In this document: one piece after another, positions 53,441 to 57,898 of the stretch
Position numbering within the stretch: position 1 is the stretch's first letter
How the letters are laid out: each line of letters begins with the position of its first letter
Sequence record: PV067732.1
DNA: 64,000 nt
Origin: Acinetobacter phage vB_AbaS-Bhz15
Strand: one strand, 5' to 3'
Translations under genes and position numbers: made by a program
The notes under the pieces: model-generated
What the model was told of the DNA's origin: nothing
The model's input: only the letters and a program-made list of their open reading frames with translations
Databases searched by the model: none

Positions 53441-54949
53441 ATGTCTAATTTTTATTTAGTTGTTGAACAGTCAGGTGATCGCATTCAAGAACGTTATGTT
53501 GAAGATGGCATTGAAAAAATTCGTGAAATTCCATATGAACCTACTCTTTTTATTCATGCTAAAGATGGCACAAACACAAAATATAAAGACATCTATGGTA
53601 AGCCATGTATGCCAAAACGATTTGGATCTATTCGTGAAGCAAAAGACTGGATGCAAAAAACTCGTGGTATTGTAGAAATCCTTGGCATGGATGACTTTAG
53701 ACTTGCATACATTTCAGATATTTATGGCAAAAAGGAAATTACTTACAGTCGCGATGCTATTCGTGTTGCTAACTGTGACATTGAGGTAACTGCAGGTGAA
53801 TTCCCAGATCCAACTTTTGCAAAGTATGAAATTGATGCTATTACACATTATGACTCAATTGAAGACAAGTATTTTGTATTTGATTTGCTAAATTCTGCTC
53901 GAGGACGTGTTACTAAATGGTCCAAAGAACTTGCAGCAAAATCAATTGAAGAAGGTGGTGATGAAGTGCCACAACATATTTTGGATAAAGTAGTGTATCA
54001 ATCTTATGAAACTGAACGTGAAATGTTATTGGCCTACGTTGAGTTCTGGGAAAAACACACACCTGTTATTTTCACTGGATGGAACGTAGAAGGTTTTGAT
54101 ATTCCATACATTGTCAATCGAATCAAAAACGTTTTAGGCGTTTCAGGCATGTCCCGTTTAAGTCCATTTGGTAAGATTACATCAAAAGTTATTACAAACA
54201 TGTACGGTGATAAAGAAATTTTCAACATTTCTGGAGTAATGATTCTCGATTATCTAGATTTGTATAAAAAGTTTGCTTTCACGTCTCAGCCATCATATAA
54301 GCTTGATTATATTGCAGAGTATGAAGCTGGGATCAACAAATTAGAATATGACGGCCCAATCGATAAACTACGTGGATCAAATCATCAACGTTACATCTCA
54401 TATAACATTATTGACGTGTACTGTGTTCAAGCAATTGATGCAAAACGTGGATTTATTAATCTATCAATTTCAATGGGTTATTATGCACGAATGAACATTG
54501 CAACAGTAATGAGTCCAGTAAAAACCTGGGATGCAATTTTGTTCAACTCTTTAAAAGCTGATCATTTAGTTTTACCCGAAAGTAAACCAAATATTCGCCA
54601 ATCGTATTCAGGAGCATATGTTAAAGAACCTAAACCTGGTGCATACAAATATGTTGTATCATTTGATGTAACATCACTATACCCATCGATTATTCGTCAA
54701 GTTAATATCAGCCCAGAAACTATTGCCGGACAATTTGCGCCTCCAAAGTTATCTGATTTTATTAACAAAATTGCGCCTAGTCCATCAGAAGAATTCTCAT
54801 GTTCACCTAGTGGTATGATGTATTTGAAAACTAAACAAGGCATTATTCCACAAGAAATTACTAAAGTGTTCTTTCAACGTAAAGAATGGAAGAACAAAAT
54901 GATGGCTGCAAAACGTAATGCAGAATTGATTAAAAAATTAATCAAATAA
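53441..54949 (+). CDS. 43A: DNA polymerase N-terminal cistron (43A: 3'-5' exonuclease plus palm motif A)
   Basis: 502 aa. Exo motifs, family-B motif A (VSFDVTSLYPSIIRQ) near the C-terminus, and a stop at 54947-54949. Confidence 0.9.
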   Translation: MSNFYLVVEQSGDRIQERYVEDGIEKIREIPYEPTLFIHAKDGTNTKYKDIYGKPCMPKRFGSIREAKDWMQKTRGIVEILGMDDFRLAYISDIYGKKEITYSRDAIRVANCDIEVTAGEFPDPTFAKYEIDAITHYDSIEDKYFVFDLLNSARGRVTKWSKELAAKSIEEGGDEVPQHILDKVVYQSYETEREMLLAYVEFWEKHTPVIFTGWNVEGFDIPYIVNRIKNVLGVSGMSRLSPFGKITSKVITNMYGDKEIFNISGVMILDYLDLYKKFAFTSQPSYKLDYIAEYEAGINKLEYDGPIDKLRGSNHQRYISYNIIDVYCVQAIDAKRGFINLSISMGYYARMNIATVMSPVKTWDAILFNSLKADHLVLPESKPNIRQSYSGAYVKEPKPGAYKYVVSFDVTSLYPSIIRQVNISPETIAGQFAPPKLSDFINKIAPSPSEEFSCSPSGMMYLKTKQGIIPQEITKVFFQRKEWKNKMMAAKRNAELIKKLIK

Positions 54950-54952
54950 ATG

Positions 54953-54990
54953 TTTACTTTTGATAGGACTATTGTTATAATAGTCCTATC
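54953..54990 (+). promoter_or_regulatory. PeSL-like early promoter in a 29-nt palindrome
   Basis: GTTTAC, a 17-nt spacer, then TATAAT then AGTC. The palindrome is GATAGGACTATTG-T-TATAATAGTCCTATC. Confidence 0.6.
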
Positions 54991-55009
54991 AACTACAGAG
55001 AAGTATATT

Positions 55010-55300
55010 ATGATCACTCAATCTAAATTAGCATTTAACACAGCAGCTCCAGTAATTGACACTCGTTCTACTCGTTCAATGGATGCAAAAATTACATTAG
55101 GCATTCTTGCTCTAGAATTTAAAGGCAGCAATATTAAATTAGTAATTGATCCACGTGATCGTGAAACAAATAAACAAAAGGTAGTTGAAATTGAACGTAT
55201 TGTTCATCGTTTCCAAGATACTAAAATCACTGAAGAAAATCTTAAAGCTCTGACAAATGAAATTCTTCCGATCGCAGTAACAATGTATAGTATCGTTTAA
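55010..55300 (+). CDS. Hypothetical protein within the gene 43 insert
   Basis: 96 aa from an internal ATG downstream of the PeSL promoter. Confidence 0.5.
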   Translation: MITQSKLAFNTAAPVIDTRSTRSMDAKITLGILALEFKGSNIKLVIDPRDRETNKQKVVEIERIVHRFQDTKITEENLKALTNEILPIAVTMYSIV

Positions 55301-55317
55301 AACTTATATCTTTCATA

Positions 55318-55382
55318 AGGGACTTCGGTCCCTTTCTTTTTCTCTAAAATTTGTTTACTTTGCTTTTTGATTATGATATAAT
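55318..55382 (+). promoter_or_regulatory. Terminator hairpin followed by a PeSL-like early promoter
   Basis: Hairpin AAGGGAC-TTCG-GTCCCTT then TCTTTTT. Then GTTTAC, an 18-nt spacer, and TATAAT. Confidence 0.6.
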
Positions 55383-55409
55383 CATTCTTATAAATCAGAG
55401 GAATTCATT

Positions 55410-55654: not shown

Positions 55655-55690
55655 ATTCGTAAAGCACACACATGCTTTACGAATTTTTTG
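55655..55690 (+). terminator. Hairpin with a T-run
   Basis: CGTAAAGCA-CACACA-TGCTTTACG followed by AATTTTTTG. Confidence 0.6.
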
Positions 55691-55803
55691 TGTTATAATG
55701 GTTCTACCGGTTCACCGCTCTAAATTTAGCCGTTCCGTTGGACTAGAATAGCTGCTGCGCAGCCGGCGCTTCGCGCCGAAATCTGAATATTGTCGAGTAT
55801 GAT

Positions 55804-56118
55804 ATGAATATTGAAAGAGATGTAATAATCACTCCTGAAGGAGAAACATTTATTAATGTGTGGCCATTAAGTGCAATTCATTATAATGGTACTTGTAATG
55901 CTGAACTATCCGCTGAATTTATTCATAAAGCATTGAAATTTAAAGATGGTGAAGATATAATTTCATTTATAAATGATTTTGTTACTAATGGATTGAATAG
56001 TATTATTGGCTTGCCAAATACTCCTTCAACTATATATGATATTATGAATATTTTTGAAATGGCTTCTCGTGAGTGTGAAGCTAGATTTCCTGAATTTAGA
56101 CTGGTGTTAAATAAATGA
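55804..56118 (+). CDS. Hypothetical protein within the gene 43 insert
   Basis: 104 aa ORF. Confidence 0.5.
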   Translation: MNIERDVIITPEGETFINVWPLSAIHYNGTCNAELSAEFIHKALKFKDGEDIISFINDFVTNGLNSIIGLPNTPSTIYDIMNIFEMASRECEARFPEFRLVLNK

Positions 56119-56432
56119 GAGTATATAAATCCATTGAAGAGTTTGATGAAATTCAAGGTTGTCAAACAACATTATTTACTATAGGCGAAATTGATGAAAA
56201 GTTCCACCTTTCATGGATGCCTAATGTCCTTGAAGCCATCACATTGCCTCGCTATTCAGGATATTTTAATACATTTGACATGTGCCGTAAAAATGTAGAA
56301 ACTGTGCTCAATGCACGCTGCTCCAGCCAATCAGATATTAATACAGTCATACAGTTAATGAATGAATCTGTTCGCAAAGAATTGGAAATAAATCGTTTAT
56401 TATTTCAATGTTTTAGGGAGATAGGCCTATGA
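56115..56432 (+). CDS. Hypothetical protein within the gene 43 insert
   Basis: 105 aa ORF. Confidence 0.5.
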   Translation: MRVYKSIEEFDEIQGCQTTLFTIGEIDEKFHLSWMPNVLEAITLPRYSGYFNTFDMCRKNVETVLNARCSSQSDINTVIQLMNESVRKELEINRLLFQCFREIGL

Positions 56433-56626
56433 ATATTTTTAGTCAAATTCGTATTGCTAATGAGAATGCAGAAAATTTTTCTGAAACTGCTGCATTATGG
56501 TATCGGGTTGTTGTAGGTGTAGGTATATGCATTCCATTGTTGTTTATTGTTGGGTTCATTACCGGTGCATTGATGTTCAAGAATCCTCTAGCTGCAGGTT
56601 CTGAGCTTGTCAACGCAATGTTCTAA
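56429..56626 (+). CDS. Small membrane protein within the gene 43 insert
   Basis: 65 aa with one transmembrane helix. Confidence 0.45.
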   Translation: MNIFSQIRIANENAENFSETAALWYRVVVGVGICIPLLFIVGFITGALMFKNPLAAGSELVNAMF

Positions 56627-56725
56627 TTAGTGTTACAACTTAGTTACCACTAAGCTTATATCAGGGATATGATAAAATGTTATCATATCCCATTTGAGTC
56701 AATAAACCCTATCTTTGGAGATTAT

Positions 56726-57898
56726 ATGAATCTTGATTTTAGTCGAGACTTCACCGAAAGTGAAATTGAATACCTCAAATCTCTTTCACAAGAAGAACTC
56801 AATATATTCGAAACACAATGTGAAAATTACATCACATTATGTGATACAAATCAAATTAACCGAAAGCTATTAATTAACAGTTTATATGGCGCACTCGGTA
56901 ACATCTATTTTAGATTTTACGATCTTAGAAATGCTGAAGCTATTACAATCTTTGGGCAAATGGTTCTTCAATGGACTGAACGAAAGATTAATGCATACTT
57001 AAACGAACTATGTGGAACTACAGATCATCCATATGTAATTTACGGTGACACAGATTCTCTTTACATTGAATTGAGTCCATTAATCGAAAAAGTTGGCATC
57101 GATAAATTTTCATCAACTGAAAAGCTTGTTGACTTTTTAGATGCAGTAGCTTCGAAGAAAATCGAACCAGTTATTAATGATGGGTTTAAAGAGATGTGTG
57201 AATATCTCAACAACTATGAACAATTGATGTTTATGGATCGTGAAGCTATTGCATGCCCACCACTTGGTTCTAATGGCATTGGCGGATTCTGGCGTGCCAA
57301 GAAACGATATGCACTTAATGTCTATGACATGGAAGGTACACGTTTCAAAGAGCCATACTTAAAAATCATGGGCATGGAAACTCAACAATCATCAACGCCT
57401 AAAGCGGTCAAAGATGCATTGTTAGAAAGTATTCGTATTATGCTCCAAGAAGGTGAAAAACCATTGCAAGAATATTTCAAGAAATTTGAAAACGAATTCA
57501 GAAATCTTGATTATAAAGTAATTGCTGGTGTTCGTTCTGCAAATAACATTGCAAAATATGATGTGAATGGATTCCCGGGTCTTAAATGCCCAAGTCATGT
57601 CCGTGGTGTTCTTACATACCGACGTGCAATTAAGAAATACGATAACTTGCCAGATATCTCAGAAGGCGAAAAGGTAATGATCTTGCCTCTTAAACCAGGA
57701 AATCCATTTGGTGACAAGTGTATTGCATGGCCATCAGGTAATGAATTGCCAAAAGAAATTCGTGCAGATGTTCTGAAGCATATGGATGTCATGGACTTAT
57801 TTGGCAAAACATACAAAAAACCTCTTGAAGGTATGTGTGAATCTGCAGGTATGCAAGCTGAAAAACGTTCGTCATTGATGGATATGTTTGATTTTTAA
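56726..57898 (+). CDS. 43B: DNA polymerase C-terminal cistron (43B: motifs B and C, thumb)
   Basis: Start MNLDF with Shine-Dalgarno GGAG. Motif B KLLINSLYGALGN and motif C YGDTDS. The upstream ATG at 56669 lies inside a 12-bp hairpin and was rejected as the start. Confidence 0.85.
   Translation: MNLDFSRDFTESEIEYLKSLSQEELNIFETQCENYITLCDTNQINRKLLINSLYGALGNIYFRFYDLRNAEAITIFGQMVLQWTERKINAYLNELCGTTDHPYVIYGDTDSLYIELSPLIEKVGIDKFSSTEKLVDFLDAVASKKIEPVINDGFKEMCEYLNNYEQLMFMDREAIACPPLGSNGIGGFWRAKKRYALNVYDMEGTRFKEPYLKIMGMETQQSSTPKAVKDALLESIRIMLQEGEKPLQEYFKKFENEFRNLDYKVIAGVRSANNIAKYDVNGFPGLKCPSHVRGVLTYRRAIKKYDNLPDISEGEKVMILPLKPGNPFGDKCIAWPSGNELPKEIRADVLKHMDVMDLFGKTYKKPLEGMCESAGMQAEKRSSLMDMFDF

Follow-up and report, generated by a model that had tools for sequence, protein, structure and literature searches.

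Split-fingertip gene 43 DNA polymerase with an intervening early-gene cluster and a dispersed promoter-leader element in Acinetobacter phage vB_AbaS-Bhz15

We analysed a window of 64,000 nucleotides (nt) from the genome of Acinetobacter phage vB_AbaS-Bhz15 (PV067732.1), in which the T4-type DNA polymerase gene 43 at positions 53441-57898 is present as two separate cistrons. Gene 43A is an open reading frame (ORF) of 502 amino acids (aa) on the + strand at 53441-54949, closed by a TAA stop at 54947-54949, and matches the Pfam families DNA_pol_B_exo1 and DNA_pol_B. Gene 43B (56726-57898, + strand) encodes 390 aa and matches DNA_pol_B, and its start agrees with the 43B annotation of the relatives. 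The interval between them (54950-56725) is 1776 base pairs (bp) long and contains five + strand ORFs of 96, 74, 104, 105 and 65 aa, here named A to E, together with promoter cassettes, two intrinsic terminators and one copy of a promoter-leader element that recurs elsewhere in the genome. An initial annotation of this DNA had reported a 1.8-kb insert with five small ORFs of 65-105 aa, each with its own ribosome-binding site, and this description stands.

The two adjacent same-strand cistrons are jointly colinear with full-length gp43, and motifs A, B and C are all kept. The N-terminal domain and the 3'-5' exonuclease are on 43A, together with palm motif A and the first of the two fingers helices; the second of these helices, which contains motif B (KLLINSLYGALG), is on 43B, as are palm motif C (YGDTDS), the thumb and the C-terminal tail. 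Through a search against solved structures, 43A was aligned with residues 1-500 of T4 gp43 and 1-502 of RB69 gp43 (E ~1e-200) and 43B with residues 512-903 of RB69 gp43 (E ~1e-160); the overall identity of 43A plus 43B to RB69 gp43 was 61% in a MAFFT alignment. The initial annotation had read the cistrons as one gp43 of about 900 aa with motifs B and C in 43B, which is borne out, and its distance of 70 aa from motif A to the 43A stop needs correction: DVTSLYPS occupies residues 409-416 of 502 and is followed by 86 aa.

In the MAFFT alignment the last residue of 43A corresponds to RB69 residue 504 and the first residue of 43B to residue 514, between the two long finger helices, and about nine RB69 tip residues are absent at the break. 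Since residues 504-534 of the fingers are disordered in RB69 crystals (PMC3792054), the cut lies in a flexible fingertip, and the alignment demonstrates this placement at the level of sequence. The loop at the cut is dispensable. With the cut in the fingertip, motif A on 43A and motif C on 43B, the active site would be formed by both chains. The break column is identical in the window, PhT2, Kimel, ZZ1, Acj61 and the Aeromonas phage phiAS4, and nearly so in phage 133.

Each cistron has its own translation signals. A Shine-Dalgarno sequence GGAG precedes 43A at 53432-53435 (+ strand), where a ribosome-binding site is annotated in Maestro, and another precedes 43B at 56717-56720 (+ strand), 5-6 nt before the ATG at 56726, an arrangement conserved in six lineages. 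The 43B ORF opens at ATG 56669, and the conserved start is ATG 56726. No Shine-Dalgarno sequence precedes the upstream ATG, and the 19 aa that its use would add fall upstream of the part aligning with RB69 and T4 gp43. This ATG is located in the 5' arm of a hairpin at 56664-56691 (+ strand; perfect 12-bp stem, 56664-56675/56680-56691). The initial annotation had the hairpin occlude this in-frame ATG; both features are present, but the occluding role is incidental, as the ATG lacks a Shine-Dalgarno sequence and the hairpin was found among the compared relatives in PhT2 only. Maestro is annotated with a terminator here, and at the same place before 43B there is a strong terminator in phage 133 and none in Kimel, ZZ1 and Acj61. 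The hairpin probably acts as a weak terminator or an attenuator, or else it belongs as stem-loop to a fourth cassette, whose TTACCA-18-TATGAT overlaps it.

A layout CCC(U)nU...GGAG was observed upstream of both polymerase starts, as UUCCCUUUAGGAG at 53420-53440 and AACCCUAUCUUUGGAG at 56705-56725, and also before 43B in Kimel, ZZ1 and Acj61. T4 gp43 and RegA are translational repressors, and the layout, a candidate recognised by its letters, could be a shared translational operator of 43A and 43B.

Three ORFs of the insert belong to PHROGs families of unknown function: ORF A (55010-55300, + strand, 96 aa; phrog_21960), ORF D (56115-56432, + strand, 105 aa; phrog_26620) and ORF E (56429-56626, + strand, 65 aa, hydrophobic; phrog_24434). 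No family was assigned to ORF B (55410-55634, + strand, 74 aa, 44% identical to its PhT2 counterpart) or ORF C (55804-56118, + strand, 104 aa), and Pfam revealed no nuclease or other domain in the five ORFs. Through all-against-all BLASTP we found that in the T4-like phages of Acinetobacter 43A is always followed directly by ORF A, with identities of 100% in PhT2, 86% in Kimel, 57% in Acj61 and 40% in ZZ1 and a partial match in phage 133. ORF D is conserved in PhT2, Kimel, ZZ1, Acj61 and Acj9, and ORF E in PhT2, Kimel, ZZ1 and Acj61; A, D and E are syntenic at the gene 43 site in PhT2, Kimel, ZZ1, Acj61 and Acj9, and phage 133 shows part of this synteny. A tblastn search with A, D and E hit 65 records, all of Acinetobacter phages, at 76 places, almost always one per genome, and among 50,697 phage records the three genes were found at no other site. 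An ORF opening at ATG 54950 (54947-55300) is in the frame of 43A with the TAA alone between them, and this longer form of ORF A is annotated in Kimel. The frame relation is not kept in ZZ1 and Acj61, so a read-through fusion of 43A and ORF A is unlikely; a fusion of ORF E with 43B by read-through was rejected because two in-frame stops intervene.

Three promoter-like cassettes were found in the insert, all on the + strand. P1 (54952-54992) has GTTTAC at 54952-54957 and TGn plus TATAAT at 54973-54981, giving GTTTAC-N15-TGTTATAAT (54952-54981), and a perfect 14-bp inverted repeat (54960-54973/54979-54992) lies over its -10. The early promoter P2 (55353-55382; GTTTAC-N15-TGATATAAT) comes after terminator T1 (55317-55344, + strand), which a terminator scan recognised as AAGGGAC-TTCG-GTCCCTT (55317-55334) with a T run. 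Terminator T2 (55655-55690, + strand) is a perfect 12-bp stem (55655-55684) with T6, its 3' arm bears the MotA-box-like TGCTTTA, and P3 overlaps it. P3 (55673-55699) is composed of TGCTTTA (55673-55679), 14 nt and the extended -10 TGTTATAAT (TATAAT at 55694-55699). The window has 10 matches to the pattern GTTTAC-N15-TGnTATAAT, every one of them on the + strand; 0.08 matches would be expected. The initial annotation had correctly placed PeSL-type promoters at 54953 and 55353 and noted the terminator hairpins, and it had missed the third promoter-like site.

These cassettes resemble the PeSL and PmSL elements (Arbiol 2010, PMC2839356; Comeau 2014, PMC4122927), in which a sigma-70-type early promoter has a stem-loop over or beside it, the stem-loops double as terminators, the cassettes precede ORFans in hyperplastic regions, and sequence islands match recombination breakpoints. 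PeSLs were described for RB49/phi1, T4/PST and KVP40/nt-1 (PMC2839356, PMC4122927), and the Acinetobacter phages lie outside this set. P3 differs from the PeSL definition in an additional conserved transcribed leader of 24-90 nt, and its element has five evenly spaced copies against about 50 PeSLs each in RB49 and phi1. With P1, P2, P3 and two intrinsic terminators, the insert is a small hyperplastic region of early ORFans. In the neighbourhood, a terminator-like hairpin formed by an inverted repeat (53367-53404) is located between 43A and the small ORF after regA; the terminator scan called it on the - strand, and Maestro has a terminator at the homologous place. Downstream of 43B, a strong bidirectional terminator-like hairpin at 58439-58504 (CCACAAAAGGCTAAAG...CTTTAGCCTTTTGTGG), with weak chance-level Rfam matches, overlaps an early promoter at 58460-58489 and looks like another promoter-terminator cassette.

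Over 53441-57898 the phage is 99.2% identical to AB-Navy71 at full length, 98.8% to Maestro, 92% to PhT2 and 83% to Lazarusvirus phages such as Kimel. AB-Navy71, Maestro and PhT2 belong to Hadassahvirus, which together with Lazarusvirus is placed in the family Straboviridae, subfamily Twarogvirinae. AB-Navy71 and Maestro were used as therapeutic phages in a published treatment case (PMC9247103), and the present phage is essentially a member of this therapeutic lineage, for which genomes were already available.

The split fingertip of gene 43, which the initial annotation had taken as new, is an already known and inherited trait of the group. It was described for phages 133, 44RR, 31, 25 and 65, with the cistrons separated by 2 bp (Aeromonas) to 3 kb (Acinetobacter), according to Petrov 2006 and 2010 as summarised in PMC3061061. 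The ZZ1 genome paper (PMC4177764) gives the split gene 43 among the differences from T4, and PhT2, Kimel, Acj61, 133 and ZZ1 were deposited with a "gp43A/gp43B split DNA polymerase" and 6-10 ORFs between the cistrons. In its break column and its cistron lengths the present locus is like those of 133, Acj61, Acj9, ZZ1, Lazarusvirus and Hadassahvirus (502-506 plus 390-392 aa). It also shares with the Acinetobacter split gp43 loci the order regA then 43A (GenBank; Petrov et al. 2006 J Mol Biol 361:46) and a small-ORF insert that opens with a promoter and the ORF A family. It differs from these relatives in insert content only: five ORFs here, six in PhT2, Kimel and ZZ1, eight in 133 and ten in Acj61. 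ORFs B and C are restricted to Hadassahvirus and Lazarusvirus, as is the five-copy leader element. In phages 44RR, 31 and 25 of Aeromonas the fingertip break is homologous, to judge from secondary accounts of Petrov, Ratnayaka & Karam (2010 J Mol Biol 395:457); 44RR has a short untranslated spacer in place of the 1.8-kb early-gene cluster, whereas phage 25 and phiAS4 have a GIY-YIG endonuclease gene and a group I intron in 43B, neither of which is present here. Methanothermobacter PolB and an engineered split Pfu polymerase indicate that a family B polymerase tolerates two chains (PMC3061061). The Pfu split is also in the fingers, although engineered, while the Methanothermobacter split is in the palm, and neither has comparable intervening genes.

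We are highly confident that the locus encodes a bicistronic "split fingertip" replicative family B polymerase of the T4 family, vertically inherited in Acinetobacter T4-like phages. gp43A and gp43B would each be translated from their own Shine-Dalgarno sequence and start codon and would associate non-covalently, so that the catalytic aspartates, corresponding to D411 on one side and D621/D623 on the other in RB69 gp43 (PMC3792054), would lie on different polypeptides. In phage 25, 43A and 43B co-purify and are polymerase-active, and reassembly from two polypeptides was shown for the Aeromonas phages 44RR and 25 (both Petrov 2010, as reported in PMC2988022). By analogy with these homologous splits we infer that the halves form an active polymerase complex, in agreement with the initial annotation, which held that the enzyme must reassemble from two polypeptides. 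43A would be expressed from upstream promoters; with T1 and T2 between 43A and 43B, the latter would probably be made mainly from P3, as an ORF C-D-E-43B transcript, plus some read-through.

Several points weigh against this account. About nine deposited genomes, including Maestro (MT949699) and AB-Navy71, have a single coding sequence joined across the insert (MT949699, OL770260, MW388001-4, OL770258 and OL770261), which implies an intron. The gp43A/gp43B complex and the lack of splicing in this phage rest on homologues, and the transcription model is drawn from consensus matches alone. Promoter-like matches in the region number 24 against 22.4 in shuffled sequences, the MotA-box pattern occurs 10 times in the window against 6.05 with no significant enrichment, and the 14-bp spacing of P3 exceeds the 12±1 of T4 (PMC2988021).

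The joined records raise the possibility that the interval is a group I or group II intron spliced out to give a single gp43 mRNA, and there is precedent in a self-splicing group I intron in 43B of phage 25 (Petrov 2010, as summarised in PMC2993671) and in the interrupted 43B of its relative phiAS4. We nevertheless regard an intron here as highly improbable. No intron family was among the Rfam matches over 52000-59500 even at E<=1, where the matches were at chance level, although a highly divergent intron could escape such a search. Each of the five ORFs in the interval has a ribosome-binding site of its own, and two or three promoters and two terminators are present besides; 43A closes with TAA, and the GGAG-ATG start of 43B is conserved in six lineages; the insert ranges from 5 to 10 ORFs among relatives with the cistron ends fixed; and homologous splits yielded two polypeptides experimentally (PMC2988022). 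The joined 43A-43B coding sequence is probably a mis-annotation of one block of GenBank records, and the sequence gives the joining no support. An intein was rejected because the TAA and further stop codons, promoters and terminators intervene, and Pfam gave no Hint or LAGLIDADG match. The statement of the initial annotation that the insert is neither an intein nor a recognisable intron or homing endonuclease is upheld, and no GIY-YIG, HNH or LAGLIDADG domain was found in the five ORFs by Pfam at E<=0.1.

The initial annotation had further suggested that the inserted genes may be the mobile cargo that created the split; such cargo would be a homing-endonuclease cassette or another mobile element. 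A GIY-YIG endonuclease gene does occupy the same break in phiAS4 and phage 25, homing-endonuclease insertions split nrdA in Aeh1 and gene 60 in T4 (PMC2988022), and the insert is partly exchanged between close relatives. But the ten larger insert ORFs of Acj61, 133 and ZZ1 also contain no endonuclease domain (Pfam, E<=0.01), one ORF of the 133 insert being a macro-domain Tk.4 protein. A, D and E have moreover diverged more than gp43 across five syntenic lineages: the identity with Acj61 is 57% for ORF A and 72% for gp43, the pattern of an old resident. This synteny and the restriction to a single site point to an old resident of the split site rather than a recent cargo, and the short untranslated spacer of 44RR, with the same split (PMC2988022), indicates that the split needs no cargo. 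An ancient endonuclease that was later lost is possible, yet as a whole the cargo explanation is unlikely, and we do not follow the initial annotation on this point.

The insert is mosaic when nucleotide identity is profiled with a sliding window against PhT2 and against Kimel. Against PhT2, identity is about 100% up to 55300 (43A, P1 and ORF A), 53-75% over ORF B (55350-55640), 99-100% over P3 and its leader (55650-55790), 63-88% from 55800 to about 57000 (ORFs C-E and the first ~250 nt of 43B) and at least 95% in the remaining 43B. The proteins of ORFs C, D and E are 69-74% identical to those of PhT2, and nucleotide identity is 70-88% in the first ~250 nt of 43B, compared with 99-100% for 43A, ORF A, the P3 leader and the remainder of 43B; one recombination endpoint, as read from this profile, is inside 43B. 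The other identity breakpoints against PhT2 are at T1/P2 and on either side of P3 and its leader. Against Kimel, an island of 98-99% at 54850-54950 takes in the final 100 nt of 43A together with the beginning of P1, flanked by 78-88%. Such islands at the cassettes are the pattern expected for PeSL recombination boundaries (PMC2839356, PMC4122927); the cassettes may serve as boundaries at which the ORFs between them are swapped among relatives, leaving 43A, 43B and the cassettes near-identical. In phage 133 the insert of gene 43 includes a Tk.4-like macro-domain gene (14585-15322), and in Kimel this gene (16150-16593) adjoins a different copy of the five-copy element, at a distance of 30 kb; judged by these positions, it is an ORF shuffled between hyperplastic regions.

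The leader of P3 is one copy of this element (55700-55790, or 55691-55790 with the -10; + strand), composed of a box, GGTTCTACCGGTTCACCGCTCTAA, and an optional GC-rich module; G+C is ~57% over ~84 nt (55700-55783) against ~30-35% around it. A second, stand-alone copy in the window lies on the - strand at 24036-23858 (match 24008..23954), antisense to genes 2 and 3 as annotated in Maestro, and ends in a hairpin (23895-23874) with a T run. In all ten aligned copies TGnTATAAT is directly followed by GGTTCTAC(C)GGTTCACCGCTCTAA, invariant but for a one-base C indel, and the modules downstream of this 24-nt box are variable. The GC-rich hairpin pair is optional, complete in four of the ten copies and partial in a fifth. 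CTCTAAATTTA is present in 5/5 Hadassahvirus copies and CTCTAATTATA in 5/5 Lazarusvirus copies, which indicates that the paralogous copies evolve in concert, as is consistent with recombination at PeSL-type cassettes.

By BLAST the element was found in about 51 Hadassahvirus and Lazarusvirus genomes, at 5-6 places each and with 86-100% identity, better conserved than the flanking genes. In Kimel (MN732883; 167,922 bp) the copies are at 15,966 (+ strand; stand-alone and antisense with its own terminator, between an HNH gene and the Tk.4-like gene), 47,708 (-; gene 43 insert), 80,690 (+; antisense, in the gap between genes 2 and 3), 119,761 (-; directly behind gene 25 and ahead of a DUF2685 gene, close to uvsW) and 151,224 (-; between gene 34 and rnh, towards rnh). 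The gaps are 31.7, 33.0, 39.1, 31.5 and 32.7 kb, and the two copies of the window are 31.7 kb apart. For five random points on a circle the probability of a minimum gap at least as large as observed is 1.6e-5, and that of a coefficient of variation as low as observed or lower is 1e-4. The element was absent by nhmmer from the Acj61, 133, ZZ1, phiAS4 and RB69 loci, and the sequence of a 290-nt gap in the insert of Acj61 did not prove to be multi-copy. In IMG/VR, scans retrieved five copies each for AbTZA1 and Kimel, whereas metagenome contigs and 185,579 bacterial genomes gave no match to the exact pattern. A 17-mer, GGTTCACCGCTCTAAAT, occurs in seven IMG/VR contigs of an unrelated phage type, intergenic and upstream of a small ORF, and is kept even where the flanks diverge; this is probably a single chance or unrelated occurrence. 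In Maestro the gap between genes 2 and 3 contains a 59-bp tandem duplication of the -10 and leader (1905-2023 of MT949699 78300-81300), adjoining a mobC-like homing endonuclease gene that the window does not have. The cumulative GC skew of the window has its minimum at ~20-22 kb with a sign change there (~20000-24000), which presumably marks a switch in coding strand; the antisense copy at 24.0 kb is about 2 kb from this minimum.

The initial annotation had called this part of the insert a GC-rich structured segment, of which the G+C content holds and the structure does not: the fold of the gene 43 copy is no better than that of shuffled sequences (z = -0.32), and RNAalifold on ten copies gave an invariant 3-bp stem only, with no covariation. 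A structured regulatory RNA, either a riboswitch-like leader of ORF C-43B or a family of small-RNA genes, is accordingly doubtful, though some features speak for it. The segment is directly downstream of a promoter, two of the five copies are stand-alone, antisense and closed by a terminator (window 24036-23858; Kimel ~15,966-16,140), the copy number is steady at about five in ~51 genomes, and the fold of the stand-alone copy in the window has z = -2.64, to which its terminator contributes most. To be set against these are, besides the folding results, the lack of any Rfam match above chance for the element copies and of any tRNA by ARAGORN, the absence of the GC-rich hairpin module from most copies and of its loop from the module of one copy, and the position of the box directly after the -10, because of which its first 6-7 nt are probably not transcribed.

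Another explanation, which we find somewhat less probable, is that the element is an origin module of the T4 oriF/oriG type, in which a promoter transcript primes DNA synthesis, with one such module in the insert of gene 43. Early origins number at least five in T4 (PMC3016281), and of these oriF and oriG consist of a MotA-type middle promoter and about 100 bp (Kreuzer & Brister 2010, PMC3016281). In the GenBank record of T4T, from which we took the coordinates, oriA is at 16,749, oriE at 79,333 (antisense, gene 5), oriF at 115,333 (uvsY promoter, after gene 25) and oriG at 152,960 (antisense, gene 34). The element is likewise a promoter-centred module of about 100 bp with about five copies per genome. 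One copy is exactly at the place of oriF and the uvsY promoter, after gene 25 and in the same direction, next to the DUF2685 gene and with uvsW nearby; the copy at the rnh/34 junction points away from gene 34, as the oriG transcript does; two copies have predicted non-coding antisense transcripts, as in oriE and oriG; and the spacing in Kimel is even. The element is also a recombination island, and T4 origins coincide with recombination hot spots, according to the title of a reference in PMC3016281.

Against an origin, the T4 origins have no common motif and do not depend on a particular sequence downstream, and they unwind at an A+T-rich element that acts independently of its sequence (PMC3016281), so a GC-rich box that is invariant in all copies is not predicted by the T4 model. 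The gene neighbourhood is exact for oriF only: oriG is approximate, 2.1 kb inside gene 34, oriA, beside gene 56, is 7.5 kb away from the copy in Kimel and has the opposite direction, and T4 oriC lies far from gene 43. As to a MotA-type promoter the picture is mixed: most copies have TGCTTTA, yet with a spacing of 14 bp where T4 MotA promoters have 12±1 (PMC2988021), and the pattern is without enrichment in the window. The coordinate comparison (P ~0.004) was made post hoc, and module boundaries could also yield even spacing. The even spacing and the oriF-equivalent copy give hints of an origin-like role, and with the exact neighbourhood match for oriF only we keep it as a tentative suggestion. 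The proposal that the five copies, spaced by ~32 kb, act as early origins or as another genome-wide cis-acting system of Hadassahvirus and Lazarusvirus is equally speculative; the element may instead function as a small RNA or a leader, or as the operator of some protein.

For specialists of T4 the split itself, a family B polymerase made as two chains cut at the fingertip, is textbook-level. What is added here is that the insert is an old, lineage-wide resident cluster remodelled at its promoter cassettes, and not the agent of the split, and that these genomes contain a dispersed five-copy element, the one part that may be novel, whose even spacing is highly non-random and whose copies evolve in concert. 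If the origin role is true, these phages would be the first of the T4 type in which several origins can be recognised by a common sequence, with one origin inside the split polymerase gene, and the element would give a sequence handle on how origins are specified in T4-type phages, a question that is open in T4, where the origins share no motif.

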